Below, one piece after another: positions 9,375 to 64,000 of a stretch of DNA of 64,000 nt. The position numbers and the translations under genes were made by a program. The DNA is taken from IMG/VR virus record IMGVR_UViG_2934965791_000001, positions 1 to 64,000 of that record; one strand, 5' to 3'. Each line of letters starts with the position of its first letter. Position 1 is the stretch's first letter. This stretch comes from a virus. Lineage: Duplodnaviria; Caudoviricetes. Under the pieces are notes generated by a model. That model did not search any database. It was not told where the DNA came from and was given only the letters and a program-made list of their open reading frames with translations.

Positions 9375-9447
9375 GGCGGATCCCTTCTGTTCATGGTCGA
9401 CGCTGGCCCGACTTGGTCGAGGCGGCCGGTGAGGAGGGCGACGGTGG

Positions 9448-17917: not shown

Positions 17918-17978
17918 GAGGCCGACCGAACAACATCGAGGGCGCGTCGACAGCTGTGACGCCGTGCTGCGTCATGGC

Positions 17979-18389: not shown

Positions 18390-18597
18390 GGGGGTACCTC
18401 AGCGCTCAGGTGTGGAAGTGATGCCTCGTCCGGCTGTCCCGCGTAGGGGGACGAGCCGAGCGACGCCGTGCACACCAGATAACCGACTGTCACCAGCATC
18501 CGACCATGACGAAGTTGCGCGGCCTCACTGCACGACCCCTGACGAATTGACTAGTCCTTTACTCGCGGGGTTGAGGTGCAGCACCTACCGTGACGAC

Positions 18598-44414: not shown

Positions 44415-44788
44415 CAGCTACTCCGTGGGGTGATACGGCGCGCCGAGCCCTGCGGCGACCAGCCGGTGACGCGCCCTGACTTGTAGAGCTGCCAGGCGTG
44501 TTCGTCGAGGACCGCGCCGATCAGCCAGTCGCCGGCCTTGACGACGACGTCGCCGAGGTTCCAGTCCGGGCCGCGGTAGATGTACGACTCGACGACCTTC
44601 GCGGCGCCCTCGGTGCCGTCGGCGTGGAACAGCCCGGTCTCGGGGCCGTTCTGGAGGAACCGCCATGCGGCCTTCTCCAGCTCCGCGGCGGAGAAAAAGT
44701 CACGGCCGCCATCCGCACCCCGCTTGATCATGGGGTCGGGGCCGGCCTGGTAGGCGACGCCGAGCACGTAGCGCTGCTCGTCGGGCAT
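44414..44788 (-). CDS. XkdF-like prohead serine protease domain protein
   Basis: RYVLGVAY, ELEKAAW, H..VVESYI, GDWL, GRVTGWSPQG. Confidence 0.8.
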   Translation of the reverse strand: MPDEQRYVLGVAYQAGPDPMIKRGADGGRDFFSAAELEKAAWRFLQNGPETGLFHADGTEGAAKVVESYIYRGPDWNLGDVVVKAGDWLIGAVLDEHAWQLYKSGRVTGWSPQGSARRITPRSS

Positions 44789-48711: not shown

Positions 48712-51174
48712 CTATTCGTCGGTGTTCCAGCGGCCTCCGGTGAGCCACGCCCGCCAGGTGGCGCTCGGCTGGCTGGCCGTCCAGCGGGTGACCACGCCGA
48801 CCGCGGCGAGGGCGATGTCTTGGAGCGCGCGGACAAGTTGGGTGCCGGTGGCGGCCGTGACGGCGACGCCGGCGGCGAGGAGGAGGGCGAAGACGCGGGC
48901 GATCCCCACGGATCCCGTGACGTGCGCTGTAGTGGCCGCGGACCGGCCGACGCCCCGACGGGTCATGGCGGCGGCGAGGGCGTCCGCGCGGGTTGTCAGG
49001 GCCGCCCCGCGGGTGAGGCTGCCGGTGGTGGTGGCCTGCGCGGTGTAGGTGTGTGCGGCCGCCCGCAGTATCGACACGGCAGACGGGGCGGCGGCCGCGA
49101 GTGTCCGGGCGATGCCGGACCGTACCGCCGTGCCGGCCGTGGCCGTCGCGGTGAACGGGCGGGCCAGGCCGCGGCGGATGCTGCCGACGCCGGCCGCGGC
49201 GCCGGCCATGGTCAGGGCGGCCCAGCGGATGAGGTCGCCGTCGGCGGCGGCCGTCGCCGTGGTGGTGGTGCCGGCGGCGCGGGTGATGTCCGGGTCGGCG
49301 TTCGCCGATCCGGGCAGCAGGGTGCCGACGGCACGCTGTAGGGCGCCGGTACCGCGGCCGCCGACCGTGAAGGTGAGGAGCGCGGTTCGGGCCCAGGTGA
49401 GTGCGCGGGACGCGGTCGCTGCGACCGCCAGAACCATGGCGTACGCGGCGCGGACGGCCAGGCTGGCGGTTGTGGTCGCGGTCGCTGGCAGGGGTCGCGT
49501 GACGTCCCGGTAGAGGTCGCTGTCGGTGGTCGCTTCGGCCGGCAGTGGCGTAGCGATACCGCGGTTGAGGGCGCCGGTCCCCGTGGCCGTCCCGGTGGTG
49601 TGGGTGAGGTCGATGTCCCGCCGGATGGCACGGGTCGCGGCCGCGGTGACGGCGAAGGTGGCGGCCAGGGCGCGGAGGGCGGCCAGGGTGGATCCGACAG
49701 TGCCCGTCACGGCGTAGGTGACGTGCCGTGCCGTGTTGGCCGTCCAGGTCGCGGTGGCGGTGCCGGCCGCGTCCAGGCGCCGGACGACCGCCCGGGCGAT
49801 CGTGCCGGACGCAGTCGCCGTCGCCGTGTAGGCGCGGCCGAGTGTCGCCCGCACGGTGGCGACCGCCGCGGTGTTCGCGGCGGCCGCGTAGGTGCGGGAT
49901 GCGGCCCGACCGATGACGCCGGCGACCGTGGCGGGCACCGCGACGACTTGGCCGAAGGTGCGCCGTAGGGTGCTGGCAGCGGTGGCGGCCGCGGCCAGGG
50001 GCCGGCCCAGTCCGCGGCCGGTCGACGCCGTGCCGGTGCCGGAGGCTAGGAAGTTGAGGCCGGGTATGTAGGTCAGGAGGCCGGCACCGTGCGCGGCCCG
50101 GGCGTGACTGAGGCCCAGACCGCGGGCGAGTGCCGCGCCGGCGGCGCGCGCGGTGGGGAATGCGGCCGTGACCGCTCGGGCCATGCTCGTGTTGCCGGCG
50201 GCACCAGCGGGACAGGGCCGGCCGATGTCGCGGCGGATGCTGCCGGCGCCGCCGGCGGACCCGCGGAGTGCCCGGCTGATGCCGCGGCCGGTGGCGCCGA
50301 TACCGACGGCGGCCGCGACGAACAGGAGCGCCCGCACGGTGGTGTTGACGACGCTCCGCGTGGCCGTCGCCGTCGCGGCCAGCCGAGTGGCGATGCCGCG
50401 GCCGACGGTGGCCGTCGCGGTGGCGGTGCCGGCGCGGACCAGGGCCGCGGCCCGGGTGATCCCCGTGGTGGCCGTCCCGGTCGTCGCCCAGATGGGTCCG
50501 GGCCCGCGACGTAGCGCGGTGGATGAGGAGGCCGCGCCGGCCAGGGTGACCATGCCGATGGCGCGGACGAGGACGCCGCACGTGGCGACGTTGCCCGACG
50601 GGCTCTGCGTGGCGGTCGGTGTCGCCGCGGCGGAGACGGCGGGGTTCCACACGAAACCGTTGCCGGCGGCCGTCACGGTGTACGTGAAGCCGGACGTCGA
50701 GCCGGCTACCACGGTGTTCGTGACGTACGCGTACCCGATGTAGAGCTCTGACCCGGCGGCCGGGGTGAGCGTGGGCCAGGTGACGGCCGTGGTGGTGGGG
50801 GCGGAGGTGCTGCCGCCCGTTCCGTCGCTGACCCAGGCCGTGTTGGCGAGGCTGGAGGTGAACTGTTCGGCGCACAGCTCGATCGCGACGCCGGTCACGT
50901 CGGAGTTGAAGGTGACGGTGATGGTGGCCGGGGTCGTCGACGTGATCTGGCCGAGCCAGATCTCGATGGTGCCGTTGACGACGGCCTGCGACACCGTCGC
51001 AATCTTCGTCCAGGTCGCGGGGCCGCCGCCGGTGACGGACGAGGTGCCGATGTACTGGTCGGCGACACGGACGATGAGGACCCAGGCGTTGCCCACCACG
51101 GCGCCGGACACGCTCAGGGTGGAGATGCCGCTACCGCGGTTCTGCTGGAGGCTGCCGACGGCGGAGATCGTCAC
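48712..51174 (-). CDS. Fibre-like virion protein with ~18-aa Ala/Thr/Arg repeats
   Basis: ~220-aa beta-rich head, then units such as TATATATVGRGIATRLAA and SAGGAGSIRRDIGRPCPA. Confidence 0.75.
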   Translation of the reverse strand: MTISAVGSLQQNRGSGISTLSVSGAVVGNAWVLIVRVADQYIGTSSVTGGGPATWTKIATVSQAVVNGTIEIWLGQITSTTPATITVTFNSDVTGVAIELCAEQFTSSLANTAWVSDGTGGSTSAPTTTAVTWPTLTPAAGSELYIGYAYVTNTVVAGSTSGFTYTVTAAGNGFVWNPAVSAAATPTATQSPSGNVATCGVLVRAIGMVTLAGAASSSTALRRGPGPIWATTGTATTGITRAAALVRAGTATATATVGRGIATRLAATATATRSVVNTTVRALLFVAAAVGIGATGRGISRALRGSAGGAGSIRRDIGRPCPAGAAGNTSMARAVTAAFPTARAAGAALARGLGLSHARAAHGAGLLTYIPGLNFLASGTGTASTGRGLGRPLAAAATAASTLRRTFGQVVAVPATVAGVIGRAASRTYAAAANTAAVATVRATLGRAYTATATASGTIARAVVRRLDAAGTATATWTANTARHVTYAVTGTVGSTLAALRALAATFAVTAAATRAIRRDIDLTHTTGTATGTGALNRGIATPLPAEATTDSDLYRDVTRPLPATATTTASLAVRAAYAMVLAVAATASRALTWARTALLTFTVGGRGTGALQRAVGTLLPGSANADPDITRAAGTTTTATAAADGDLIRWAALTMAGAAAGVGSIRRGLARPFTATATAGTAVRSGIARTLAAAAPSAVSILRAAAHTYTAQATTTGSLTRGAALTTRADALAAAMTRRGVGRSAATTAHVTGSVGIARVFALLLAAGVAVTAATGTQLVRALQDIALAAVGVVTRWTASQPSATWRAWLTGGRWNTDE

Positions 51175-51841: not shown

Positions 51842-52063
51842 CTACTCCTTGGCGGCCCGTGCCGCGTCTCGGTTAGCCGCTGCTGCGCGGCGGTTGAAGC
51901 GGGGCTGGCCCCAGAGGCGCCACCACAGGCGGCGGAGGGGGTTGCGGTGCCAGTAGACGCCGCGGCCGAGGTCGATGACCGTGCCGTCGGCGCGGGTGAT
52001 GACGAAGTAGGTCTCGGCGACTCGGTGCGACGCCTTCGTGGTCGGCTCGGTCGTCTCGGTCAT
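51842..52063 (-). CDS. Small hypothetical protein
   Basis: VITRADGTVIDLG..YWHRNPLRR; ATGA-coupled. Confidence 0.65.
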   Translation of the reverse strand: MTETTEPTTKASHRVAETYFVITRADGTVIDLGRGVYWHRNPLRRLWWRLWGQPRFNRRAAAANRDAARAAKE

Positions 52064-52272
52064 GACGCCTTCCGGCTGGTCGCGGTGTGTGCGTCGGCGA
52101 TGTGCCGACGCCATGAGGAGAGGTCGACCGAGATCGTGACGACGAGGTCGGGGATGGTGCCGGCCTCGGTCTCACCGGGGCCGACGGCCGTCTCCCGGAC
52201 GGGTACGTCGACGACGGTGTCTGGGCAGACCGGGCAGTCGATGGGCACGTGCGTGCCGAGTAGCGCCGCCAC
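52060..52272 (-). CDS. Small CxxC/HxxxH protein
   Basis: CPVC..HIADAH; AAGGAG RBS. Confidence 0.6.
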   Translation of the reverse strand: MAALLGTHVPIDCPVCPDTVVDVPVRETAVGPGETEAGTIPDLVVTISVDLSSWRRHIADAHTATSRKAS

Positions 52273-52292
52273 GGCGTGGACTCCTTGAGGGG

Positions 52293-53915
52293 TTAGGGCT
52301 GCTGGCCGCGGAAGCGGGCGTCACGCATGCGCTTGCGGATGGCGGCCGGGTCCTCCGTCAGGGCGTCCCACGGGTCGACGATCGGCGCGTCCGTGACCGC
52401 CTCCGGGGCGGCAGGCGGTTCGGGTACGGCCGTCCCTTCGGCCTTCGCCCGGTAGTGGTTGATCCACGCGTGCGCGCCGGTCTGGTCGAGGAGGAGGTAC
52501 GCCAGGGCCTGGCTGGTCGCGTCGACCATGTCGTCATGTGCGGCGTTCGGGAACGCCGCCGCCTCGTCGATGAGTTCGTCGGGGTCGAACAGCGCGATAT
52601 CCGTCTCCGGCACGAACGCGTTGCCAGCCTCCAGGACCGGGGAGACGGCGTTCGCCCGGGCGTACTTCGACTCGGTCGGCGTGACCGCGATGATCCCGGG
52701 GATTTTGCTCTTGAGGGTCGAGATCACGGCGGTGCCGTTCGCCTTGTCCTCGACCAACTTCGCAGTGGCCTGCGGCCAGCGCCGCACCATCGCCTCGAAC
52801 GCGGCGAGGGTGTCCGTGAAGCTGAGTCGCTTACGGATCTGGTCGAGGAGGTAGACGTTCGCACCCTTGCGGGCCCAGACCTGGCCGACGACGTAGTCAC
52901 TCGACTTCGTGTCCTTGAAGGCCATGTCCCAGCTCATGATCAGCTGGTCGAACTCGTCGACGCGGTATGCCTCGGCGGCCGCGGCGGCCTGCGACCACAG
53001 CGGGACGCCGTAGCGGCGCCACCACTGCCGCTTCCAGACGTCACCGGCGGTCGGGGACGGCCGGCCCTGGTAGAGGCTGGTCCAGGTGCGACTACCGACG
53101 TCCTGCCGCGTGTCTTCCCAGTCCTTCGGCGTACGGCCGCGGGACGAGACGAGGTATTCGCCGGGGGCACGACCGAGGGCGTCGGTCTGCCCCTTGTTCG
53201 GGTCGTGGTCGGCCTGTGCCGGCACGTTGATGTGTCGCCACTCGCCGCGCACGTCTTGGGCAAGGAGCCGGCCGGCGAGGTCGTCTTCGTGCCATCGGGT
53301 GAGTACGACGATGACGACGGTGTCCGGGCCGAAGCGGGTACGGGCGGTGTCGGTCCAGAAGTCCCACACCCGCTCGCGGAACACGAGCGACTCGGCCTGG
53401 GCGCGGTCCTTGATCGGGTCGTCGATGATGAGGATGTCGACGGGCCGGCCGGTCAGGGCGCCCTGGACGCCGACGGAGTAGACGCCGCCGGCGTGGTCCT
53501 GGATCTGCCACTCGGCCGCCGACGCGGTGTCCCGGCTGATCCGCAGCCCGAACTTGTCGGGGTTCGATGCGATGTCGTTTCGGATCGCGCGGCCCCACCG
53601 TCGGGCGGTGCCGAGTTCGTACGACGCGATAGCGATTCGCTTGTCTGGGTCGCGTGCGAGCACCCAGGCCGGGAAGGTGCGTGATACCCGCTGGCTCTTG
53701 CCCTCCTGCGGGGGCATGGTCCAGATGAGGCGCCTGGTGCGGCCCTCTGCGGCGTCGATGAGGTTCTGGTCGAGGAGCGCGAGCGCCGGCGTCAGGACGA
53801 TGCGGGGGTCGAGTTCCCGGGCGAGGTCGTGTGGGGTCGGGTAGCGGTCGACGGCGTCGCTACGTCCTTCGAGCCGGTCGGCGGCGAGTGCGAGCGCGTC
53901 CATGTCGCTGGACAC
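52293..53915 (-). CDS. terL: Terminase large subunit
   Basis: MPPQEGKS, LIIDDPIK, TRWHEDDLAG, SWDMA, EDKANG, FPNAAHDDMVDA. Confidence 0.96.
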   Translation of the reverse strand: MSSDMDALALAADRLEGRSDAVDRYPTPHDLARELDPRIVLTPALALLDQNLIDAAEGRTRRLIWTMPPQEGKSQRVSRTFPAWVLARDPDKRIAIASYELGTARRWGRAIRNDIASNPDKFGLRISRDTASAAEWQIQDHAGGVYSVGVQGALTGRPVDILIIDDPIKDRAQAESLVFRERVWDFWTDTARTRFGPDTVVIVVLTRWHEDDLAGRLLAQDVRGEWRHINVPAQADHDPNKGQTDALGRAPGEYLVSSRGRTPKDWEDTRQDVGSRTWTSLYQGRPSPTAGDVWKRQWWRRYGVPLWSQAAAAAEAYRVDEFDQLIMSWDMAFKDTKSSDYVVGQVWARKGANVYLLDQIRKRLSFTDTLAAFEAMVRRWPQATAKLVEDKANGTAVISTLKSKIPGIIAVTPTESKYARANAVSPVLEAGNAFVPETDIALFDPDELIDEAAAFPNAAHDDMVDATSQALAYLLLDQTGAHAWINHYRAKAEGTAVPEPPAAPEAVTDAPIVDPWDALTEDPAAIRKRMRDARFRGQQP

Positions 53916-53939
53916 CTCGGGCGCCTCCTCCCCGGGGTG

Positions 53940-54407
53940 TTACTCGCCGATGAGGGCGGTGTGGAGGGTGTCGAGGACACCGATCACGTCGGGGATGCGC
54001 ATGAAGTCCATGGACATGTCCACGAGGTCGCCTTCGACGACCTTGACCTCCCACTCGCCGCCGAAGTCCTCGTCGCACCAGTAGTAGGTGCCTGCGCCGG
54101 CGGCGGCGATGCCGTCGGGGGCGTGGTCGAACCAGCCCTTCCCCATCAACGTGTCGAGGGCATCGGCGACCGGCTGCTTCGGCATGCCGCGGAACTCAAG
54201 GGTTCCGCGGGCCTGGTCGTCGACGCACACGGTGCCCTCGCCGAGGCCGTCTTGCTCCCAGTTCATCCGGAGGTCGCAGCACCCGGTGGGGTACGGCATC
54301 CGTTGGAGGGGTGGGAACGCCGCGGTGGCGGCGCTGACGGCCGCCTCCTGCTGGGTCCGGAAGGCGTGTTCCCACTCGTCGAGGGCGAGTTCGGCTTCGA
54401 GTTGCAA
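53940..54407 (-). CDS. Acidic hypothetical protein
   Basis: TTG start after GGAG; lies between terS and terL. Confidence 0.65.
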   Translation of the reverse strand: MQLEAELALDEWEHAFRTQQEAAVSAATAAFPPLQRMPYPTGCCDLRMNWEQDGLGEGTVCVDDQARGTLEFRGMPKQPVADALDTLMGKGWFDHAPDGIAAAGAGTYYWCDEDFGGEWEVKVVEGDLVDMSMDFMRIPDVIGVLDTLHTALIGE

Positions 54408-54437
54408 GGTGGTGCTCCGAGGGGTGGTGCGGGTGTT

Positions 54438-55028
54438 CTAGACGGCGCGCAGGTGCCGGGCGGCGGCCTTGCGGGCGTCGTCCGCTTGCTGGCCGGTGAC
54501 GCCGGCCGCGGCGAGTGCCGCCTCAATAGCGGAGACGAGGGCGTCGGCCTGGCGTTCGGTGACGCGGGCCATCCGGTCCTCGATGTTGAGCTTGGCGATC
54601 ATGCCGAGGACGTGTCCGGTGCGGTCCATCGCCCGCTCGTACAGGGCGATCTCGGCGCGCAGTTGCTCGGACCCCGACGCGCCCTCGTAGCGGAGGCGGT
54701 CGCCGAGGTCGTTGACGATGCTGCTGATGGCCTCCTGCCAGGCGAGCACCTGGCCAGCGAGCCGGGACAGCGCGGCGAACGGGTCGGCGACCGGGGCGAC
54801 GTCGAGGGTGGCGAGTACCTGCCGGGCCTCGGCGTCGGCCATCTCCGCGCGGGCGCTGGTGCGTTGTGTGCGGGTGTTGCCGCCGTGGAGCCGGCAGTGG
54901 CCGAAGCCGACGTGGTCGGTGCCCCAGCCGGCGACGAACGTGCACGTCTCGCCAGGCTTGCCCTGCCTCTTCTGCGCGCCGCACTTCGGGCCGTCGCCGC
55001 TGGCGTGCTGCGGCCGCATGCTGGTCAC
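54438..55028 (-). CDS. HGGxSTG-domain protein, putative terminase small subunit
   Basis: CGAQKR..C..GHCRLHGGNT; upstream of terL. Confidence 0.75.
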   Translation of the reverse strand: MTSMRPQHASGDGPKCGAQKRQGKPGETCTFVAGWGTDHVGFGHCRLHGGNTRTQRTSARAEMADAEARQVLATLDVAPVADPFAALSRLAGQVLAWQEAISSIVNDLGDRLRYEGASGSEQLRAEIALYERAMDRTGHVLGMIAKLNIEDRMARVTERQADALVSAIEAALAAAGVTGQQADDARKAAARHLRAV

Positions 55029-55336
55029 TCTCGGCTCCGCTGGTTGAGGCGGAGCATGCGAACCCGGCGGTCACCGATGTTCAGGGCCGTCGAGACGGCG
55101 CCGAGGTCGCCCTTCATCGCGGCGCCCCACACAGCGGCTTGGAGCCGGTCGAGGCGTAGCACCTCAAGGACCCGGAGCGGGTCCATGGGCATCCCGTCGA
55201 ACTGGGTGTCGGCGGCCGCGGTGGCGGCGTCGAGGGCATCGGCGGCGTCGGCGTAGTCGAGCTTGTCGGCGATGGTCTGCCAGTCGACGCCGGCGAGGCG
55301 GAGGGTGAGGGCCTGGACGGCGCGCTCGTCGGACAC
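55025..55336 (-). CDS. HTH protein resembling actinophage small terminases
   Basis: ALTLRLAGVDWQTIADKLDY..RLDRLQAAVW..GDLGAV..DRRVRML. Confidence 0.7.
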   Translation of the reverse strand: MSDERAVQALTLRLAGVDWQTIADKLDYADAADALDAATAAADTQFDGMPMDPLRVLEVLRLDRLQAAVWGAAMKGDLGAVSTALNIGDRRVRMLRLNQRSRE

Positions 55337-55420
55337 GGCGGGCCTCCGTGATGGGGAAACGCCCGCGGCCCGCTCCCCCGGTGTCGGGGGGCGGGCCGCG
55401 CGGGCGGGGCTGTTCGGTTG

Positions 55421-55681
55421 TCAGTAGGTGCCGAGGCGGGGTCCGTAGTCCTCGCCGGTCAGCTCCCGGTACCGCTTGCACGCCTCGATGTAGATCGCGC
55501 CCTCTTTGAAGCGCATCCGGGCCGGGCTGCCGCCGACGCGGTCGAGGACCGTGCGGAACGTGTCGAGGTCGGGGGCGTCGGCGGCGGTCATACGGCGCAG
55601 GGCGGCATAGTCGGGGTTCGCGGCGATGCCGTTACGGCTCGGCCGACGGGTCCCCATCGTCAGTTCGCGGGCGCGTCCCAT
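55421..55681 (-). CDS. Small hypothetical protein
   Basis: AGGGAG RBS; 86 aa. Confidence 0.55.
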   Translation of the reverse strand: MGRARELTMGTRRPSRNGIAANPDYAALRRMTAADAPDLDTFRTVLDRVGGSPARMRFKEGAIYIEACKRYRELTGEDYGPRLGTY

Positions 55682-55745
55682 CGCAATTCTCCCTGTTCAA
55701 GCTGCTGTCGTGTAGCTACAGCTTGGGGGAGGATCGGGCGGCTTC

Positions 55746-57314
55746 TCAAGCCGCTTCGGGGAGTTCTTCGGCCTCGGAAAACGCCTCGTCGACGCCGTCG
55801 GGAAGGTGCACGTCGACCTCGCCGCATGCCTTCGTGGCCTCGGCCCGGTTGCCCTTGCAGAACACGATGAAGTCCTGGTGGGTACGGGCGAGACCGCGGG
55901 TGCCGGCGAAGGTGCGGCCGGCCATGACGGCGGCCGTACCGACGGGGCTGACGAGGACGGCACCGGAGGCGTAGGTGAGGCCAGCCGCGACGCCGGCCCG
56001 GATGGTGGAGCCGCGGAGGTCGTGGAGGGCGCCGCGGTTGTCGCGGGCGTCGCCGGTGACGAACACGGCGAACCGGTTCGGCTTCAGCGCCCGGGTGACG
56101 CCGGCGATGATCCGCGCGTACACCTCGTCGAACCCGTCGTACGACATGGAGGACAGGTCAGCGGGGTTCTCGCTGTACTCCTCAAGGTCGTAGTACGGCG
56201 GGCACGTGAACACCATGTCGGCACTGTTCGGTTCGAGGGTCTTCACCCACTCCGCGCTGTCGCCGATCGTCCAGGAGGGGTCGGCGGCCAGCATCCGGCG
56301 GTTCGTGAACTCGTCGCGCTGCTCACGGTTGCTCTCGACCTGCTCGGGGCGGAGGTCGTTGCCGCGGTACGGACGGCCGAGGATGCCGGCGACGATGCCG
56401 CGGACGGATCCGCCAGCGAACGGGTCGAGGATCGTGCCACCGGCCGGGGAGAACCAGCGGTACGCCAACTCGCACAGGACGGGATCGAACACGGACGTTC
56501 CGGAGGCAACCGCGTCGTCCGGGCGAACGTAGTGGTCGGCCTCGAACTCCGCCGACGTCAGCGGCCGGCCGAGCGCCTGCTCGACGGCCCGCTTCTTGTC
56601 GTAGTACTTCGGGTCGGCCTTCGCCATGCCCTCGAAGACGAGGTTGTCGCCGCGTCCGACTTCGGACCGCATGCCGAGGGACAGCCACTGTCGCTTGCGG
56701 GTGCGCCACCATCCCTGGCGGGCGTCGAGGACGTCGAACGGCGGGATGAGGAACCGGTCCGCGAGGGTGGGGTTCTCGGCCGGCTCGTCGTCGGCGGCGC
56801 CGTCGCCGCTGGAGTCGTCGCCGAGGTCGTCGAGGTCGGGCGGGGTGATGAGCGCCATGACCTCGTCGTCGCTGTAGCCGGTGCCCTCGTGGTCGCCGTC
56901 GAGGTAGGAGAGGAGTTCGGCAAGCGCGTCGTTGTCGTACCCGCCGAGTTCGGCCAGCCGGTTGTCGGCGATGTTAATACGCCGGGCCTCGTCGTCGTCG
57001 CAGACGATGATCTCGCAGCGGGCGGTCGTACCGTCCCACGCGCCGCCGGCACACATCGCGCACGGGTGCTTTTCGTCGTCGGCGTACTGGCACCGGTCAG
57101 GGCCATGCAGTTGCAGGGCCTGCATGGTGTGGTTGCCGGCGAGGACGATGAGCGGGCCGCCGGGGATCTTCCGGACGACGAGGCCGCGGTACTGGCCGTT
57201 CCGGCGGAGGCTCTTGAGGATCTCGGGCGGGTTGCCGCGCTTGGCGTTACCCGGGAACGGGGTCAGTTCGTCGAGGGGGACGTCTCGGGTCTCAACGTAG
57301 ACGGCGCCGGGCAT
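55746..57314 (-). CDS. ParB-like N-terminal domain fused to DNA methyltransferase (N6-A/N4-C type)
   Basis: LAGNHT, IADNR (ParB/Srx); SVFDPVL, LDPFAGGSVRG, FTCPPYY. Confidence 0.9.
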   Translation of the reverse strand: MPGAVYVETRDVPLDELTPFPGNAKRGNPPEILKSLRRNGQYRGLVVRKIPGGPLIVLAGNHTMQALQLHGPDRCQYADDEKHPCAMCAGGAWDGTTARCEIIVCDDDEARRINIADNRLAELGGYDNDALAELLSYLDGDHEGTGYSDDEVMALITPPDLDDLGDDSSGDGAADDEPAENPTLADRFLIPPFDVLDARQGWWRTRKRQWLSLGMRSEVGRGDNLVFEGMAKADPKYYDKKRAVEQALGRPLTSAEFEADHYVRPDDAVASGTSVFDPVLCELAYRWFSPAGGTILDPFAGGSVRGIVAGILGRPYRGNDLRPEQVESNREQRDEFTNRRMLAADPSWTIGDSAEWVKTLEPNSADMVFTCPPYYDLEEYSENPADLSSMSYDGFDEVYARIIAGVTRALKPNRFAVFVTGDARDNRGALHDLRGSTIRAGVAAGLTYASGAVLVSPVGTAAVMAGRTFAGTRGLARTHQDFIVFCKGNRAEATKACGEVDVHLPDGVDEAFSEAEELPEAA

Positions 57315-57350
57315 GCGTGGGTCTCCCGTGAGGGGTCGGGGAACGAAGAA

Positions 57351-57373
57351 GCCCCGGCCACAAGGGCCGGGGC
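57351..57373 (-). terminator. Hairpin downstream of tRNA-Trp
   Basis: GCCCCGGCC / GGCCGGGGC followed by TTCTTCGTT on the minus strand. Confidence 0.6.
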
Positions 57374-57381
57374 GGATTCTG

Positions 57382-57452
57382 CAGGATCGGCAGGAATCGA
57401 ACCTGCACTTGCGGTTTTGGAGACCGCTGCTATCCCGTTGAGCTACGACCCC
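57382..57452 (-). tRNA. tRNA-Trp (CCA), phage-encoded
   Basis: GGGGTCG-TAGCTCAACGGGATAGCA-GCGGT-CTCCAAA-ACCGC-AAGT-GCAGG-TTCGATT-CCTGC-CGATCCT-G. Full cloverleaf; 3' CCA not encoded. Confidence 0.9.
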
Positions 57453-57499
57453 ATGAGGGCGGGCCCCGGCCGAGGAGTCGGCGGCCGGGGCCCGCGGGG

Positions 57500-57829
57500 T
57501 CAGCCCTGGGCGGGAGCCGTGGACGGCTCGACCTGCTCCGGGGCCGGGGTCGGGTCGGCGGCGTCGACGGCAGCCTTGATCTCCCCGACGACCTTGCCGA
57601 GTTCGGCGATGACCGCGGTGACGACCTCGTCCTTCACCTTGTCCAGCTCGGGGACGAGCGTGGCGACCAGGCTCTTGACGAACGCGTCGAGTTCATCGCG
57701 GCCGCCGCCGATCAGGTGGCCGAACTTGTCCTTGACCTCGTCGACCAGGTCGCGGAACCGGCCAGCGAGGTTGTGTCCCTCGTCCTCCAGGTCGGTGACG
57801 ACGTGCTCGAACTCGTCGATGAGCGACAT
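57500..57829 (-). CDS. Amphipathic helical hypothetical protein
   Basis: GGAGG RBS; MSLIDEFEHV... Confidence 0.7.
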   Translation of the reverse strand: MSLIDEFEHVVTDLEDEGHNLAGRFRDLVDEVKDKFGHLIGGGRDELDAFVKSLVATLVPELDKVKDEVVTAVIAELGKVVGEIKAAVDAADPTPAPEQVEPSTAPAQG

Positions 57830-57876
57830 GCGGGTGCCTCCGGTGGCGATACGGGGTGGGGTGGTGGGGAGGGGTC

Positions 57877-58068
57877 CTACGCGCACCGGGCGCAGGGGAG
57901 CTTGCGGTGATGCCGCTCGCAGCTGTCGTCACGGGCCGGCTCGTACCGCGGGGCGGTGCCGAGGAAGCCGTGCATGGCCGCGGTCTGTTGACGGGCGGTG
58001 CGACGGGATACGGCGCGACGCTCGGCGCGGGTTCCGCGCGGCTTGTATCCGACGGGAAGGGACGGCAT
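57877..58068 (-). CDS. Small basic protein with C-x2-H..C-x2-C motif
   Basis: GGGAG RBS; CERHHRKLPCARC. Confidence 0.5.
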   Translation of the reverse strand: MPSLPVGYKPRGTRAERRAVSRRTARQQTAAMHGFLGTAPRYEPARDDSCERHHRKLPCARCA

Positions 58069-58193
58069 GAGTAGCTCCCGGGGAGGGGTGAGGGGATGCC
58101 GGCCGCCGCGCACCCCTCAATGCGTGACGGCCGGCAGCAGAAGACCCCGCCGGAAACGTTCGTCCGCGCGGGGTCTGTTCGGGGGGCCGGCGG

Positions 58194-58394
58194 TCAGACG
58201 CCGGCGAGGAGGGGGGTGCGCTTCGGGGGCACCTTCACGGCGCCGGTGGCGACGTCGCGCACTTCGAGGTAGTCGTATCGGCCGCCGTAGGAGGTGATGC
58301 GGCCCTCGGCCGCCCAGCGGGTAACCGTGCCCTTCGGCTTGCCGATGAGGTGGGCGATGTCCGACGGGGAAAGAAGGACGGGGCGGTACGTCAT
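58194..58394 (-). CDS. Small MerR/Xis-like HTH protein
   Basis: DIAHLIGKPKGTVTRWAAEGRI..RYD..EV; GGAGG RBS; at the head of the late operon. Confidence 0.75.
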   Translation of the reverse strand: MTYRPVLLSPSDIAHLIGKPKGTVTRWAAEGRITSYGGRYDYLEVRDVATGAVKVPPKRTPLLAGV

Positions 58395-58421
58395 CGGCGG
58401 TGCTGCCTCCCAGAAACGCCG

Positions 58422-58448
58422 AAGGGCCGCCCGGCGGGGGCGGCCCTT
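58422..58448. terminator. Hairpin separating the PKS block from the late operon
   Basis: AAGGGCCGCCC / GGGCGGCCCTT. Confidence 0.55.
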
Positions 58449-58514
58449 TCGACAACATTCTCAAGACTGGCAGGACTATGACTCACTCAGGCCGGTGAAG
58501 TCAAATCGGTGTCG

Positions 58515-59180
58515 CTACACGGCGACGGGGGCGCCGTCAGCCGGGGCGTGGCAGCCATGGCCGTGGCCGTGGTGCTGGCCCTGGTGGTTCCTATCGTGGT
58601 CGTGGTGGTGCCGGCCTCCGCCATCGTGCCCGTGACCGGCGCCCGGCGTGCCCGGCCTGCGGTGCCGGCCGTCCGGGCGCTTCCACTCGTCGCGGTCGCC
58701 CTTGTCCTCCGCCGCCGGCTTGTCCGGCCTGCGGTGCTTGCCAGTGCCCGGGTCCGCCGGCGTGACGGTGAAAGTGTGCACCTGGACCGGCTTGACGGCC
58801 GGCTCCCAGCTGCCGGCGGCCGTCCGGGTCTTCGGCTCGTCCGCCGTCGTGGTGAGGGTGTCCACGGCGGCCGGCGGCTCCGGGTCAGCCTCGGTGGGGT
58901 CGCGGGACTTGTCGGGGCTCCCGTACACGGCCTCCGCCCGGCCCGTGCACAGACCCAAGATGGCCGCGAGGGCGCCGAGGGCCAGGAGGGCGCGCATGGT
59001 CACGCTGCCGGTGACCGGGAGCGGCCTGGGCGCGGCATGCCTACCCGCCGCCGGCTCGGCCGGCAGTTCGACGTCCGCGACTCGGATCGTCAGAGTCGAC
59101 GCGTCGTCAGTGACGAGCGTCAGATGGGAGGCGCCGCGGCGGCTGTTGCGGAGTCGCGGGGTTGCTCCGTCGGTAGACAT
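58515..59180 (-). CDS. Membrane-anchored or secreted protein with His-rich tail
   Basis: Hydrophobic segment ALLALGALAAILGL; C-terminal GHGHDGGGRHHHDHDRNHQGQHHGHGH. Confidence 0.6.
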   Translation of the reverse strand: MSTDGATPRLRNSRRGASHLTLVTDDASTLTIRVADVELPAEPAAGRHAAPRPLPVTGSVTMRALLALGALAAILGLCTGRAEAVYGSPDKSRDPTEADPEPPAAVDTLTTTADEPKTRTAAGSWEPAVKPVQVHTFTVTPADPGTGKHRRPDKPAAEDKGDRDEWKRPDGRHRRPGTPGAGHGHDGGGRHHHDHDRNHQGQHHGHGHGCHAPADGAPVAV

Positions 59181-59234
59181 CGGAGAGCGGTCCTCACGGG
59201 CCAGGCGCCTGCGCGCGGTTGAGAGGGGAGGGTG

Positions 59235-60305
59235 TTAGATCCAGGCGCCGTAGACGCCAGCGGCCGTGAATCCGGGGCCGAAGGCGATGAGGGCGCCGGG
59301 CGATCCGGGGGCGGGAGGATCGTCGTGGGTACGGGCAAGCACGTCCAGGACTGCGGTGCCGCCAAGGTTGCCGTTCTCTGCGAGTGAGGCGTGCGAGTAC
59401 CGGCCGGCTTTCTCCGCGAGGCCGATGCTGGTTACGACGTCGTCGATGATGCGCGGGCCGCCGGGGTGGACGATCGCCCACTCGGGCCGGCGTTTGCCGA
59501 GCCAGTCGGTGATGTAGGGGACGGCGTCGGTAGCCGCGGCGGCCGCCTTCCGGGTCGAGTCGAAGTGCAGGCCCTCGTCGTCGATGGTGCCCCAGTAGCG
59601 GTCACGCGAGTTGGGCATGACAAGTTCGAGTGGGTCGAGGGCGACGAACCCCGTCGGCAGGTCGGCGGAGGTCTCGTCGGTGAGGCCGGTGACGACGGCC
59701 GCGCCGGCGGAGTCACCGAACAGCGCGCGGTACATCATCGACTGCGGCGTGGTCTCCGACTCGTGGTAGATGGTCGACAGGGTCTCAGCGACGACGACGA
59801 GGACGCGGGCGCCGGGCCGGGCAAGGGTGTGCCACAGAGCGTGGACGAGGCTCTGGGCGCCGCCGACGCAGGCGAGGGTGGACAGCCCTATGCGGGTCAC
59901 GGTCGGGCGGAGACCGAGACGCTCGATGAGGTGCACGTCCATGCCGGGCACGGTCCAGCTTGTGGTGTGGCTGGTGACGATGGCGTCGACGTCGCCGGGG
60001 TCGAGACCGGCGACGTCGAGCGCGTCGCGGGCGGCGGACTCGGCGAGGTCGAGAGCGTCGCCGAACGCCACCCCCGCGCGGTGTCCCACGCTCGACGGGG
60101 CGGTGGCCTCCTGAAGGGGCCGGGTCCAGTACCGCTGTTCCACGCCGGTGTTGCGGATGAGGCGTTTCCACAGGCCGAGGCGCGGGTGCGGCTTCGTCGG
60201 GTCGTCGGCGTCCCGGCAGGTGGCGGCGATGTGGTCGAGGAGGGCATCGGTGGTGACGCGGTGGGCGGCGAGCCGTATGACGGGTCTACCGATGTGCGCA
60301 GGCAC
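59235..60305 (-). CDS. Type III polyketide synthase (germicidin/violapyrone synthase-like)
   Basis: Cys-His-Asn triad: TLACVGG, HPGG, NGNLG; also LFGD and FGPG; GGAGG RBS. Confidence 0.92.
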   Translation of the reverse strand: MPAHIGRPVIRLAAHRVTTDALLDHIAATCRDADDPTKPHPRLGLWKRLIRNTGVEQRYWTRPLQEATAPSSVGHRAGVAFGDALDLAESAARDALDVAGLDPGDVDAIVTSHTTSWTVPGMDVHLIERLGLRPTVTRIGLSTLACVGGAQSLVHALWHTLARPGARVLVVVAETLSTIYHESETTPQSMMYRALFGDSAGAAVVTGLTDETSADLPTGFVALDPLELVMPNSRDRYWGTIDDEGLHFDSTRKAAAAATDAVPYITDWLGKRRPEWAIVHPGGPRIIDDVVTSIGLAEKAGRYSHASLAENGNLGGTAVLDVLARTHDDPPAPGSPGALIAFGPGFTAAGVYGAWI

Positions 60306-60397
60306 GGGTACCTCCAGCGGGCGTGTGTGGTGGGGCGTAGAGATCAGAGGGCCGCGGGCAGAATCGGGGGCTGCCCGGCGGCTGGTGTCGCGGCGGG

Positions 60398-61243
60398 TTA
60401 CGAACCGCCGTAGCGGGCGCGGAGCGGCGGGCGAGTGTCCGGCCGTTCAGGGCCCGGGTCGAAGATCATGAGCATGGTCACGAACCGGGGGGACGACCTC
60501 GGTATCGAGGTGTGCAGGGTCATCCACCCGGGGCCCTCCTCCGGGTGATTGAACGGCCGGGTGGCGCCGTCGGGGTGTACGAAGATCGGCCCGAAGTCCT
60601 GGTAGATGGGGCCGGCCTCCTCGTCGGCGAGGATCTGCCGCTCCAGGTTGATGAGGTATTCGTCATCCGGGTGCGCGGCCCGGGCGGCCCAGACGTGCGG
60701 GGCGACGAACGGCGCCCACGAGTTCTTCCAGTCGCCGAGGATGTACCGGGCGTCCGGGGAGAGCAGCATCCACTCCATCGTGTTCGGGGGGACCCGATGG
60801 CCGGGGAAGATGCGCGGGAGGTGGACGTTGTGGGCGACGACCTCCCAGCGGTGGTTGGTGAGGTAGGCAGGGTGCGGCTGGCCGTCGAGGACCCGGGACC
60901 AGGATGCGGGGATCTCCTCGTCGGTGTCCGGGCGGAGCGGGTACGGAGGGTCGCGGCGCCAGGTCATGTTCCACAGCCACACCCACTCGTGCGGGTTGAG
61001 GTCGAACAGCTCACCGACGCCCTTGAGGACGTGTTCGGGGGCGTTGGGCAGGCGTCCGTTCTCCAGGCGCTCGTACGTGCCGCGGCCCACGCTGAGGATG
61101 TCGTCGACCTGGGTCTGCGACAGGCCTCCGCCGGCCGGGCGGCGCCCCGCGCTGCGCGTGAAGCCGTAGTCGCTGGGATTGAGTTCGGCCCTGCGCCGCT
61201 GGAGCAGGATCCGAAGCCCCTCCTTGAGGGCACCCTGTTGCAC
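60398..61243 (-). CDS. MmyB-family XRE HTH regulator with PAS-like ligand-binding domain
   Basis: RRAELNP..GLSQ..YERLENG; HPAYLTNHRWEVVAHN; FNHPEEG. Confidence 0.9.
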   Translation of the reverse strand: MQQGALKEGLRILLQRRRAELNPSDYGFTRSAGRRPAGGGLSQTQVDDILSVGRGTYERLENGRLPNAPEHVLKGVGELFDLNPHEWVWLWNMTWRRDPPYPLRPDTDEEIPASWSRVLDGQPHPAYLTNHRWEVVAHNVHLPRIFPGHRVPPNTMEWMLLSPDARYILGDWKNSWAPFVAPHVWAARAAHPDDEYLINLERQILADEEAGPIYQDFGPIFVHPDGATRPFNHPEEGPGWMTLHTSIPRSSPRFVTMLMIFDPGPERPDTRPPLRARYGGS

Positions 61244-61640
61244 TGTCGTTCTCCCGAGATCAATCTGAGCCGAGGCTCATCATCACTGATTTCCGGCTGG
61301 CATATGCCTGCGAGATTTGCAGGCAAATACCGTCGAGGGCCTGCGGTCAGCTCTGTGTGATCGCTACGACTCCGCTCCGCGCGGTGTTCACGCAGGCCCG
61401 GGAGCCACTTTCGGGCAACCCGGGCGAGAGCTGGGCTCTCGGATATCGCGGCGGTCGATAGCGGCACCCGGCAAGGGCGTCCACTTCGCCGATCATTGCG
61501 ATTTGAACAGTCTACGCGCGTTGCTAGTGATCATTTACTGACGCCTTTTTAGGTGTCCTTTACATTCGCCGCTCCCATAAGTGCGACGGGCGCCTAGAAG
61601 GACCCCCGAAAAGTGAGCGTTTCTCACGTCCCGGGGACTG

Positions 61641-62090
61641 TCACCGCTGCACCTTCGCCGTCGCGGCCGTGGTGATCGTGGGGTTCACCTGAACGTCGAC
61701 ACGGATGCTGCCCCCTCCTCCCCCACGACCGCCGCGGCCGCGCGCCAGTACGCCGCCGACGACCATGCAGCCGAGGAGCAGACCGAGCCCGGTCTCCGCC
61801 GCGGCAAGGGCATCGAGGAGAAACGATCCGCCTACCCCGAGGCCGACGGCGAGGACGCCGCCGGCCGCCATCTTCTGCGCGGTCGGGTCGATGCCGCGCC
61901 GCTCGACGACGGCCGGCGCCGGCGCGTCGGGGGCGGCCGCCATCGCGTACCCGGTCACGACGCGGCCGTCGGGCAGCAAGACGGACTGAACCGCCGGTAC
62001 GCCGGCGGCGGCGTACGGGACGACGGCGCCGGCGGCCGGCGCCGAGTAGACGACGGCCGGCACGGCGGCCTGCTGCTGCTCGGGGATCAC
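61641..62090 (-). CDS. Two-TM membrane protein, Spd-like spreading protein
   Basis: Gly/Ala-rich TM hairpin; GTGA-coupled to traB. Confidence 0.6.
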   Translation of the reverse strand: MIPEQQQAAVPAVVYSAPAAGAVVPYAAAGVPAVQSVLLPDGRVVTGYAMAAAPDAPAPAVVERRGIDPTAQKMAAGGVLAVGLGVGGSFLLDALAAAETGLGLLLGCMVVGGVLARGRGGRGGGGGSIRVDVQVNPTITTAATAKVQR

Positions 62091-63991
62091 TGGTGCTCCT
62101 TGGGGTCGTTCGCGTAGTACCGGGTGGAGCGGCCGTCACGGCGGCCGGCGACGCCGTGCTTCTCCCACTCCTCGATCGCGCGCGTGGCCGTGTCGCGGGA
62201 GATCCCGCAGGCCGCGGCGAGTTCCTTCTTCGTGGCCGATCCGAGTGCCTGGAACTGCTCCCACAGGTCCGGCCACTGCCCGGGCTGGACGTGGTCGCCG
62301 TTCGGGAACCGCAGGGGTGCGAACTGCTCCACCCACGGCTCATCCGTGATGGCCGGCTGCTGCTCGGTGTCCGCCTTCTCCGAGTAGTAGAAGCCGACGT
62401 CGTCAGCGATATCGAGGTCGGAGACGTACTCGGCCCGGTACACCTTCGGCTCGGTCAGCTCCGGCGTCTGGAGCATGAACTTGCCGGGCAGGTCAAGCGT
62501 CTCCGGCCGCCAGCCCTTCGTCTGGCAGCCGGCCCCGAACACGAACGGGGCGTGGCCGGACTCGCCGGCGCGGGTGGACAGGCGGTTGGCGTAGTTACCC
62601 CGTGCGTCGGTCGACCCGCCGAAGACCTTCCGCGACGGCTGCTGGGTGGCACTGACGAAGTGGATGGCCAGGAACCGGGCGATGGCCAACAGGGACTCGT
62701 ACAGGGCGGCAAGCTCGGGATCCTGACGGACGAGTTCGCCCAGCTCGTCGCAGAACACGAAGATGGCCTTGCCGTGGACGCCCGGCACCCACTTGCGGAC
62801 CGGGCCCTTACCCTCCGCCATGCGTTTGCGGGTCAGCTCGGCGAGGATCTCGCCGCGCCGGTCGCACTCGCTGCGGATCCACATCAGCAGCGCGCGGGCC
62901 TGCTCCGGGGTCTTAGCCACGGGGGCGGCCATGACCGGCTCCCACGGGCCCAGCTCGGGCGCGCCGGGCTTCATGTCGATGCCGTACAGGTCGGCGTCGA
63001 GGCACCGGTTCAGCCGCTTGATGATCAGGTTGACGATGCCGGACTTCCCCCAGTCCGAGGCGCCGGCGATCAGGGTGTGCCGGTACATGAGGGTGAGGTG
63101 GACCGGCTTGCCATCCTCGTCGGCGCCGAGGAGCACGGGCTCCCGGCAGGTGGTCACCCCGGTCTCGGTCAGCGGCAGCGTGCCGGCGAGCGCGTCCACG
63201 GTGGACAGCTTCACGACCAGCTGATTGTCGGCCGGGCCCTGGGCGAGGGTGAGTTTGCCCGGCATGCCGAGGTTCGCGGCCAGCTGGACCCGCCGGGCGA
63301 TGATCGCGGCCGGCGCGGTGGTCTTACCCGGGGGCATGGCCACGATCGCGGACCAGCCGTGTTCGTTGCGGTGGAACGCCATGACGTCCTGCGGGGCCGC
63401 GCCGGTGAGGGCGTGGATGGCGCGGCGGAGCGCGGTCTCCTCCGGGGACGCTCCGATCAGGCCCGGGTCAGCAGCCTCCAGCCCGAGGGCGTTGGGCAGG
63501 GCGCCCTTCGCCTTGACGGTGTCGATGTTCAGCTTCATGCGGGCGTTGCGCTGCGCGGTCAGCCATGGCCCGTAGATCCAGTACGTCAGGCCGGTGGTCA
63601 GGGCCCACGCGGTCGCCGACTCGGGACCGGGGCCGAACGCGGTCGCGGTGGCTATGTCGCCCAGAGCCACGGTGAGGCCGGCCGCGGCCTGCGTGACCGG
63701 GGCGTTCTTGTGCTTGAGGCCGAGCACGGCCGCGGTCGCGGCGACGCCGGCGAGCGCCCCGTACGACAAGGTCGGGCCGATGCCCTCCTGCCACCAGCCG
63801 AGCAGGGACAGAGTGGAGGTGCCGGCCACGGGTGCCAGTTCGTAGCGGCGGCGGGAGACCCAGTCACGGGTGTGCACCAGCCAGCCGACGCAGCGCACCA
63901 CGAGGGGCCTAGATGACGACGACGATGACGACGACGACGCAAAACCCCTGGTCAGACGGTACGTCGTCGCGTCGGCCGTCTTCGTCGTCAT
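62087..63991 (-). CDS. traB: FtsK/SpoIIIE-family conjugative DNA translocase (TraB-like)
   Basis: N-terminal TM segments; Walker A HTLIAGASDWGKS, IDMKPG, Walker B FVFCDE, ATQQPS; C-terminal wHTH (ATKKELAAACGISRDTATRAI). Confidence 0.88.
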   Translation of the reverse strand: MTTKTADATTYRLTRGFASSSSSSSSSRPLVVRCVGWLVHTRDWVSRRRYELAPVAGTSTLSLLGWWQEGIGPTLSYGALAGVAATAAVLGLKHKNAPVTQAAAGLTVALGDIATATAFGPGPESATAWALTTGLTYWIYGPWLTAQRNARMKLNIDTVKAKGALPNALGLEAADPGLIGASPEETALRRAIHALTGAAPQDVMAFHRNEHGWSAIVAMPPGKTTAPAAIIARRVQLAANLGMPGKLTLAQGPADNQLVVKLSTVDALAGTLPLTETGVTTCREPVLLGADEDGKPVHLTLMYRHTLIAGASDWGKSGIVNLIIKRLNRCLDADLYGIDMKPGAPELGPWEPVMAAPVAKTPEQARALLMWIRSECDRRGEILAELTRKRMAEGKGPVRKWVPGVHGKAIFVFCDELGELVRQDPELAALYESLLAIARFLAIHFVSATQQPSRKVFGGSTDARGNYANRLSTRAGESGHAPFVFGAGCQTKGWRPETLDLPGKFMLQTPELTEPKVYRAEYVSDLDIADDVGFYYSEKADTEQQPAITDEPWVEQFAPLRFPNGDHVQPGQWPDLWEQFQALGSATKKELAAACGISRDTATRAIEEWEKHGVAGRRDGRSTRYYANDPKEHQ

Positions 63992-64000
63992 CGGCTCGGG

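Follow-up and report, generated by a model that had tools for sequence, protein, structure and literature searches.

What is a stand-alone type III polyketide synthase (PKS), paired with a putative ligand-binding regulator, doing in a tailed phage of Streptomyces? The question is raised by the IMG/VR record IMGVR_UViG_2934965791_000001 (Duplodnaviria; Caudoviricetes), which is 99,284 bp long and is classed by IMG/VR as a provirus with a CheckV completeness estimate of 90%. The first 64 kb of this record form the stretch analysed here (hereafter the window; GC content ~70%). The two genes lie among genes that are all on the minus strand between 64 kb and 25 kb, in the following order:

60398-61243, minus strand: regulator (P0002), 281 aa
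59235-60305, minus strand: PKS (P0001), 356 aa

A preliminary description of this DNA had proposed that the pair is a signalling module that reports lysogen density or controls transfer. Our results point to a different answer. The pair probably descends from the same source as the vioB/vioA violapyrone cassette, of which it would be a diverged copy, and serves as accessory cargo of a ~99-kb temperate Streptomyces phage with conjugation-type genes.

The intact Cys-His-Asn type III PKS of the preliminary description was confirmed, and both ORFs are found exactly where that description puts them. Both Pfam domains scored above their cut-offs of 27 bits (Chal_sti_synt_N, 72.8 bits; Chal_sti_synt_C, 34.9 bits), and the triad residues Cys146, His280, and Asn313 were invariant in a 27-sequence alignment (homologues with 50-88% identity). 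The triad aligned with the CxxGG, HxGGP, and GN motifs of THNS (1U0M) and Gcs (3V7I). By sequence, the nearest solved structures were germicidin synthase (3V7I), THN synthase (1U0M), and PKS11 of M. tuberculosis (E-values of 3e-39 to 4e-34). The AlphaFold2 model of the PKS (predicted local distance difference test score, pLDDT, of 91.3) had a thiolase-type fold, with template modelling (TM) scores of 0.88-0.89 and root-mean-square deviations of 2.4-2.9 Å when compared with THNS, PKS11, and Gcs. The gene starts with GTG, preceded at 7 nt by a GGAGG ribosome-binding site, and lies 92 bp after the regulator gene. GGAG-type ribosome-binding sites were found before both genes, whose third-position GC (0.92 in the regulator, 0.89 in the PKS) is at the level expected for real Streptomyces genes.

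The PKS was 49.7% identical to the PKS of plasmid pCQ3, which carries the vio cassette, 46.5% to pZL12.100 of the phage-plasmid pZL12, and 51.5% to P0053, with a range of 51-52% for P0053 and two further relatives (L016 and L020). P0053 is presumably the Cpz6 orthologue of the A-90289 producer, judging from the name of its source and its 52.3% identity to the pCQ3 PKS. The best NCBIfam match, DpgA, reached 85.5 bits against a cut-off of 425, and the NCBI name 'PhlD' that is attached to many of the homologues was not used as functional evidence. Among the scanned neighbours (upstream through the open reading frame (ORF) at 61641-62090, downstream over 53940-59180) there was no match to a biosynthetic-enzyme or transporter family, and the sole enzyme-like match was a fusion of a ParB-like domain with a DNA methyltransferase. 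Taken together with the placement of the PKS in the VioA/Cpz6 clade described below, these comparisons support the enzyme class suggested earlier for P0001, which is intact: a type III PKS that stands alone and belongs with the alkyl-pyrone synthases (violapyrone/germicidin).

The upstream gene likewise proved to be of the predicted type, a regulator with an XRE helix-turn-helix (HTH) at the N-terminus and an MmyB-type, PAS-like ligand-binding domain at the C-terminus. The ligand-binding domain was recognised clearly (MLTR_LBD, PF17765; 51.6 bits, cut-off 26.3), and the HTH marginally (HTH_31; 27.9 bits, cut-off 27). A phmmer search of the PDB with the regulator sequence alone gave no match; a profile of 28 regulator homologues found 3PXP, an MmyB-like protein of Chloroflexus aurantiacus, as its best PDB match (E-value 3.7e-5). 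The same structure was the top Foldseek match of the AlphaFold2 model (pLDDT 86.4; E-value 5.5e-8 over 273 columns), followed by PAS domains. Identity to 3PXP was 15%, and the TM score was only 0.42 because the domains are oriented differently. The regulator shared 40.8% identity with the pCQ3 regulator (E-value 4e-71) and 40.0% with pZL12.99. The pCQ3 gene in question, at 32-856, is presumably the protein WP_012840387.1 of PMC4924298, as judged from its position and from the order of accessions.

To place the pair among phages, 50,697 phage records were searched, and a full-length PKS homologue was found only in the phage/plasmid pZL12 (phiZL12, GQ919031; filed twice). In pZL12, the 'transcriptional regulator' pZL12.99 directly precedes pZL12.100, the 'type III polyketide synthase'. 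Of the 124 ORFs called in our element, only 11 matched pZL12, and the regulator and PKS were among the best conserved of these (40% and 46.5% identity, respectively).

A pattern scan with one genome per species returned 488 relatives, of which the best 80 were examined together with six IMG/VR loci (86 loci). In 75 of the 86, the PKS was immediately preceded by a regulator homologue of the same orientation, with gaps of 53-693 bp (median 125); the 11 exceptions comprised three loci cut at a contig edge and eight without a regulator. Clustering the flanking genes and matching them to this element and to pZL12 gave the following contexts:

Context A, 8 loci (L007-L014): the phage type of the window, with the same gene order downstream of the PKS
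Context pZL12 type, 12 loci: additional pZL12 genes in the flanks
Context B, 18 loci: conserved mixed-strand chromosomal neighbourhood
Context C, 9 loci: conserved mixed-strand chromosomal neighbourhood
Context D, 5 loci: conserved mixed-strand chromosomal neighbourhood
Context E, 6 loci: conserved mixed-strand chromosomal neighbourhood
Sulfotransferase-linked context, 6 loci: PKS without regulator
Other, 22 loci: the remainder

The flanks of contexts B to E (38 loci) encoded TetR, MFS, GFO oxidoreductase, GNAT, isochorismatase, acyl-CoA dehydrogenase, and similar proteins. Beyond the pair itself, they held zero pZL12 genes and at most one gene of this phage (at one locus, L043). Because the pair also occupies conserved chromosomal sites without other phage genes, it appears to be mobile accessory cargo and not a phage-specific circuit. 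In terms of the survey of carriers that the preliminary description had called for, the phage types A (8) and pZL12 (12) are among the carriers, and at least 38 of the 86 loci are chromosomal.

Mobile elements held many further copies. In IMG/VR, 29 loci encoded a relative of the PKS, six of group A and 23 of the pZL12 type (20 of the 23 on contigs of 83-96 kb), and the regulator adjoined the PKS in 26 of them, the remaining three being cut at an edge. In PLSDB, 57 plasmids had a PKS homologue. A pZL12-type terminase (at least 54% identity) was found in 34 plasmids, 26 of which also had the PKS homologue when the two lists were compared by eye. Among the matches listed, 29 proteins were at least 68% identical to the PKS of the window; eight of them came from contigs of 95-99.3 kb, one of which was labelled a plasmid.

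Several side observations were made on these loci. In two linear plasmids of S. anulatus (NZ_CP109342.1, NZ_CP108641.1), the PKS homologue overlaps an annotated ScbR-family regulator of the gamma-butyrolactone-receptor type, a partner unlike the MmyB type. At L025 (S. netropsis, 9082-9906), the regulator copy has an in-frame stop beside a PKS that looks intact, possibly a natural vioB-null; this copy was left out of alignment A2. Six loci (L016, L018, L020, L021, L027, and L062; hosts Streptomyces, Lentzea, and Actinosynnema) have a Cpz6-like PKS without regulator beside an arylsulfotransferase, a Sulfotransfer_4 protein, and an inositol-monophosphatase-family protein, with a PMT_2 glycosyltransferase in 3/6 (at L020 the module spans ~4.8-10 kb). 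It seems that a pyrone sulfate-shuttle module is widespread outside liponucleoside clusters. The pZL12-type terminase matches of five plasmids (NC_013449.1, NZ_CP032230.1, NZ_CP108353.1, NZ_CP134214.1, and NZ_CP109524.1) were in two pieces or under HNH/LAGLIDADG annotations, which suggests intron- or intein-type insertions in the terminases of several phage-plasmids.

The phylogeny of the PKS (103 rows, quick search, LG+G4, with 16 mid/far outgroup representatives and without the partial copies L011, L012, and L015; neither the root nor the direction of transfer is fixed by this tree) placed all cassette PKSs in one starred clade (support 98; 88 rows) that holds VioA-type and Cpz6-type enzymes. 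Within it, group A (this phage and six relatives) was monophyletic (100) and was sister to the sulfotransferase-linked, Cpz6-like clade (99), not to the pZL12/pCQ3 branch, which was itself sister to the chromosomal groups B and C. Group A thus falls within a clade that the Cpz6-like and pCQ3/pZL12 types bracket. In the tree of the regulator (77 rows), the same groups were recovered, with group A on a long separate branch. The two trees therefore indicate that regulator and PKS travel together, and that the copies in the two phage lineages stem from separate deep branches.

Within the phage lineage itself, presence was assessed in 33 IMG/VR loci with a related terminase. Among the 14 loci with a terminase of at least 75% identity, six carried the PKS at the same place, one (L105) had none within 6.5 kb upstream, and seven were too short upstream. 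None of the 19 loci with a terminase of at most 65% identity carried the PKS, six of which have 8-10 kb of upstream sequence and are informative (52-65% identity). The PKS is therefore found in 6/7 informative close relatives and in 0/6 informative distant ones, which argues for clade-specific cargo. Both genes are under purifying selection: in six group-A copies (15 pairs for each gene), dN/dS was 0.27-0.51 for the PKS and 0.15-0.42 for the regulator, below 1 in 30/30 pairs.

Upstream of the regulator lies a region that may hold the control of the unit:

61244-61640, minus strand: intergenic region of 397 bp, AT-richer in one stretch, where the promoter of regulator and PKS presumably lies (direct reading)
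61304-61326, no strand assigned: palindrome TTGCCTGCAAATCTCGCAGGCAT, a candidate operator that precedes the start codon of the regulator by 79 nt

A simple consensus scan of 61244-61640 gave no sigma-70 match. The palindrome (23 bp with a 7-bp spacing) coincides with an island, CCTGCAAAT(C/T)TCGCAGGCAAATG, that is conserved upstream of the group-A regulators: it was present in 7/7 group-A loci, 76-87 nt before the regulator start, within upstream DNA that has otherwise diverged. It had one match in the window (0/100 shuffles matched), no further copy anywhere in the 99-kb record when as many as 5 mismatches were allowed, and a single occurrence per group-A locus in 747 kb of related loci, with no copy between the pair and the terminase in the relatives. 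Upstream of the regulators of other groups, vio-type loci included, the palindrome was absent; those groups have their own conserved AT-rich upstream blocks, from which no common motif was resolved. We infer that the palindrome is a candidate operator of an autoregulated regulator-PKS unit.

The cassette is proposed to work as follows. The PKS, presumably a homodimer, would load a fatty-acid-derived acyl or beta-ketoacyl starter from coenzyme A or acyl carrier protein and condense it with malonyl-type extenders; by analogy with VioA and Cpz6, these could be malonyl plus methylmalonyl, or ethylmalonyl. The chain would then be lactonised to 4-hydroxy-6-alkyl-alpha-pyrones, a step for which a tailoring enzyme would be unneeded. 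The regulator most likely binds the 23-bp palindrome before its own gene and represses the unit until a small hydrophobic ligand fills the PAS-like domain. The pyrones would act outside phage morphogenesis, as a weak compound against Gram-positive bacteria or as a modulator of neighbours, and in this way the cassette may help the lysogen and hence the element. Product, repression at this palindrome, ligand, and ecological pay-off are all predictions.

The gene order around the pair, from a TraB-like gene to the packaging genes, places it inside the phage element, as the preliminary description had assumed; a location outside the element, which would have spoken against that description, can be set aside. 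On the minus strand, an FtsK/SpoIIIE-like ATPase is followed by a 149-aa ORF, the regulator, the PKS, a His-rich protein with a signal peptide, a 66-aa HTH protein, a coiled-coil protein, tRNA-Trp, a terminator-like hairpin, a ParB-nuclease/DNA-methylase fusion, small genes, and the large terminase. A fusion of portal, Nudix, and MuF domains, a protease-like protein, a head-tail adaptor, a tail protein, the tape measure, a 1312-aa tail protein, a peptidase, and the endolysin come after the terminase. The features on which the argument draws are:

62087-63901, minus strand: FtsK/SpoIIIE-like ATPase with a C-terminal winged HTH (TraB-like), upstream neighbour of the pair (Pfam FtsK_SpoIIIE 33.3 bits, HTH_29 27.9 bits; phrog_1358)
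58515-59003, minus strand: 162-aa protein whose N-terminus resembles a signal/lipobox sequence and whose tail is rich in His (sequence reading)
58194-58394, minus strand: 66-aa HTH protein, Xis/MerR-like (HTH_17 19.6 bits, under the cut-off)
57381-57452, minus strand: tRNA-Trp(CCA) (ARAGORN)
57351-57373, minus strand: GC-rich terminator-like hairpin directly after tRNA-Trp (terminator scan)
55746-57314, minus strand: fusion of a ParB-like nuclease domain with an N6/N4 DNA methyltransferase, which precedes the terminase and is kept in most relatives
52293-53915, minus strand: large terminase, start of the packaging/structural module (Terminase_6N, Terminase_6C; TIGR01630)
22442-23623, plus strand: tyrosine recombinase after the lysis genes
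1305-2879, minus strand: tyrosine integrase of 524 aa, adjoining a fragment of a thiamine pyrophosphate (TPP)-dependent enzyme
115-573, plus strand: TPP-dependent enzyme fragment at the left end

The placement of the pair between traB/spd and the head of the late operon, as first described, held for the FtsK/TraB-like gene upstream; the 149-aa 'spd' ORF had no match in the Pfam and PHROG scans, and the terminase is ~5.3 kb away, behind eight small or accessory genes, tRNA-Trp, and the hairpin. The accessory block to which the pair belongs probably ends, on its 3' side, at the tRNA and hairpin (57351-57452). Within this block, the 162-aa protein gave no match in Pfam and PHROG scans, yet it is syntenic in the clustering of flanking genes (cluster 47, following the PKS in group-A phages), and a homologue with 35-44% identity comes immediately after the PKS in 5/6 PKS-carrying loci among the terminase relatives. 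The 66-aa HTH protein is 78-95% identical across six PKS-bearing relatives of group A and has a promoter-like site just upstream of its gene (58504-58475).

Other parts of the element were also characterised. A TPP-enzyme gene is a possible insertion site of the element; no direct repeat longer than 15 bp was shared by the first 6 kb and the last 8 kb, and the search gave no att sites. Past the window there are many small plus-strand genes and a gene for a single-stranded DNA-binding protein. A DUF2637 membrane protein (record positions 64413-65549, minus strand; 413-1549 in L093) adjoins the FtsK/TraB-like gene, and such a DUF2637 and FtsK/TraB-like module in a tailed phage resembles actinomycete integrative conjugative elements. 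The portal fusion (44788-47862, minus strand; 1024 aa) joins an N-terminal portal (phrog_2662), a central Nudix domain (residues ~588-716), and a C-terminal MuF-like minor head domain. Between terminase and portal, an 820-aa ORF (48712-51174, minus strand) has an unusually high second-position GC (0.70) and no match in Pfam or PHROG. The TTA-containing ORFs of the record (3 of the 124 called ORFs) all cluster at 16992-19881, which hints at bldA-dependent expression there. A search for near-identical DNA with positions 52000-64000 of the window found no match in phage and plasmid collections, and for positions 57300-62100 no RNA dataset was listed as containing the sequence and one DNA run was, which may be the source of the record.

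How, then, do other explanations of the pair compare? The best of them, which we regard as unlikely, is that the product is a developmental or metabolic modulator of the host, whose germicidin-like or elicitor action would aid the maintenance or spread of the element, with a regulator that controls no phage genes. Germicidin synthase is among the three nearest solved structures, and the chromosomal copies of the cassette would fit a general physiological role. The available passages of two papers lend further weight: vio expression has been linked to the developmental regulator WblA (PMC4924298), and low-level expression of VioA(G231L) activates silent clusters in heterologous strains (PMC12113368). 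Violapyrones have, however, been described as antibacterials and not as autoregulators in the accessible text of PMC4924298, and neither gene of the pair has a TTA codon. Such codons do occur elsewhere, in 7/77 matches of the regulator and in 2/88 of the PKS.

The proposal of the preliminary description, in its fullest form, is that of communication between phages or phage-plasmids. A pyrone secreted by the lysogen, or a host acyl metabolite, would be sensed by the regulator, which would gate a transcript running from the palindrome through the PKS and the downstream HTH gene towards packaging or transfer functions, and so control lysis-lysogeny, induction, or TraB-mediated transfer; it would be a non-peptide, polyketide counterpart of arbitrium, acquired independently by two lineages. 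Some of our data are in line with this. Two phage lineages that are unrelated, group A and the pZL12 type, have both preserved the synthase together with the ligand-binding regulator, most pZL12-type plasmids (26/34) retain them, and in this element they are co-oriented with, and upstream of, the packaging genes and next to the TraB-like gene. Alpha-pyrones are moreover signals in Photorhabdus according to work cited in the available passages of PMC12113368, where violapyrones are also noted as having been proposed by others as possible signals, and VioA(G231L) switches on silent clusters. The wider distribution argues otherwise, as the cassette is also found in the chromosomal groups B to E (38 loci) and distant phage relatives are without it. 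The architecture also speaks against a link to the lysis-lysogeny switch: ~36 kb separate the pair from the integrase/lysogeny region, the tRNA and terminator-like hairpin stand between its block and the terminase operon, and the only candidate operator lies before the regulator, with none near the integrases, lysis genes, or late genes. In addition, the effect reported for a vioB deletion is a higher pyrone titre (a titre readout, in the part of PMC4924298 available), as for a plain repressor. The signalling module is hence improbable in our view, and the likeness to arbitrium is speculation.

A still smaller probability attaches to the pair being decaying cargo, that is, an intact-looking hitch-hiker without current function in this phage. 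The PKS dN/dS of up to 0.51 and the absence of the pair from the close relative L105 and from all informative distant relatives would suit this explanation; against it, both frames are intact in 7/7 group-A copies, no change is seen in the catalytic triad, every pair has a dN/dS below 1, and the position and candidate operator are conserved. Finally, a Cpz6-type sulfate shuttle, in which the pyrone is sulfated and then serves as sulfate donor to another metabolite, can be dismissed as very improbable: group A is indeed sister (99) to the sulfotransferase-linked PKS clade, but it keeps the regulator that this clade is without, and a tblastn search of the 99-kb record with four neighbours of the L020 PKS found no match.

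The interpretation as a diverged vio cassette in accessory cargo has points that weigh against it as well, and our arguments should be taken with these in mind. Identity to the characterised proteins is only ~50% for the PKS and 41% for the regulator, and the group-A branch is long in both trees (0.48 for the PKS, 1.1 for the regulator). Nor are the dN/dS values of group A very low; substrate or product may have shifted. P0053 and the sulfotransferase-linked loci represented Cpz6 in our comparisons. A protein other than the regulator could bind the palindrome, and a benefit to the lysogen or to the phage is presumed throughout. For VioA itself, which is not known from in vitro assays, PMC5898002 reports that soluble protein was not obtained.

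What is new here is a second, unrelated phage lineage with a deep-branching copy of the cassette that is closest to the Cpz6 clade, and a conserved palindrome upstream of the regulator that is a candidate operator and single in the element. The vio cassette and type III PKSs on pZL12/pCQ3-type elements are already known, and the present case adds a further copy to them, without amounting to a system of a new kind. Phages seldom carry biosynthetic genes, and the vio cassette is nonetheless kept by most pZL12-type phage-plasmids and by a second lineage, which points to a possible recurrent pay-off of the cassette for temperate Streptomyces elements. For natural-product research, the locus offers a relative of VioA and Cpz6 that branches deeply and comes with a regulator of its own and a concrete candidate for the operator. 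The two literatures have had little contact: phage papers treat the PKS as a curiosity, and the word phage does not occur in the vio papers (PMC4924298, PMC5898002). According to a 2023 survey, T3PKS clusters occurred only in prophages on plasmids (PMC10023795), and the S. leeuwenhoekii genome paper remarks that the type III PKS on pSLE1 stands outside any cluster (PMC4487206).

Two known systems resemble the pair only in how they would work. Photopyrone (PpyS/PluR) and arbitrium (AimP/AimR) also combine a producer of a small molecule with a cognate ligand-binding transcription factor, and there is no homology. The regulator of the methylenomycin cluster, MmyB, and P0002 share the XRE HTH and the PAS-like ligand-binding domain (PF17765). 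MmyB is an activator. VioB differs in that it is a repressor by genetics (PMC4924298, in part).

The characterised vio system is the nearest in design. According to the available text of PMC4924298, vioA (350 aa) and vioB (272 aa, XRE) form the complete violapyrone cluster of S. somaliensis SCSIO ZH66 on a ~85-kb circular plasmid. Deletion of vioA abolishes violapyrone B, deletion of vioB raises it ~eightfold, and deletion of the ORFs flanking vioAB has no effect. Violapyrones are 3-methyl-4-hydroxy-6-alkyl-alpha-pyrones with antibacterial activity (best minimum inhibitory concentration 25 µg/mL), and VioA is 95% identical to WP_012840496.1 of pCQ3 and 53% to Cpz6, which makes the same compound. 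The parts of PMC5898002 available add that VioA groups with Cpz6, DpyA, and Gcs, that it probably uses beta-keto acyl starters with methyl- or ethylmalonyl-CoA, and that vioAB loci occur in 21 further genomes, mostly on plasmids. With the vio cassette (near-identical copies in pCQ3 and pCQ4), our pair shares the XRE/MmyB-type regulator directly upstream, the co-oriented PKS of ~350 aa, the lack of tailoring genes, the PKS clade, and a mobile carrier with phage and tra genes. It differs in its low identity to the pCQ3 proteins and in its genome position. The carriers differ too: the 99-kb record was scanned without an AAA_31 (ParA-type) or ParB_N match and is classed as a provirus.

The comparison extends to Cpz6, the presulficidin synthase of the caprazamycin cluster, whose clade is the nearest to the group-A PKS and which makes the same class of pyrone in the account given in PMC4924298 (available in part). 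Loci of the Cpz6 type have no regulator and adjoin sulfotransferases, whereas the present element keeps the regulator and has no sulfotransferase. On the side of the phage-plasmids, pCQ3 encodes traA, traB, a major capsid protein, an HK97 gp10 protein, tail genes, and a pZL12-type terminase; because it joins tra, capsid, and tail genes, the characterised vio cassette was already on a phage-plasmid. What our element has in common with pZL12, a Streptomyces element of ~90 kb that is phage and conjugative plasmid at once, is the combination of a regulator with a type III PKS. The carrier phages are distinct (33% identity between terminases), and so are the copies they hold, that of pZL12 lying in the VioA branch and the present one in the branch beside Cpz6.

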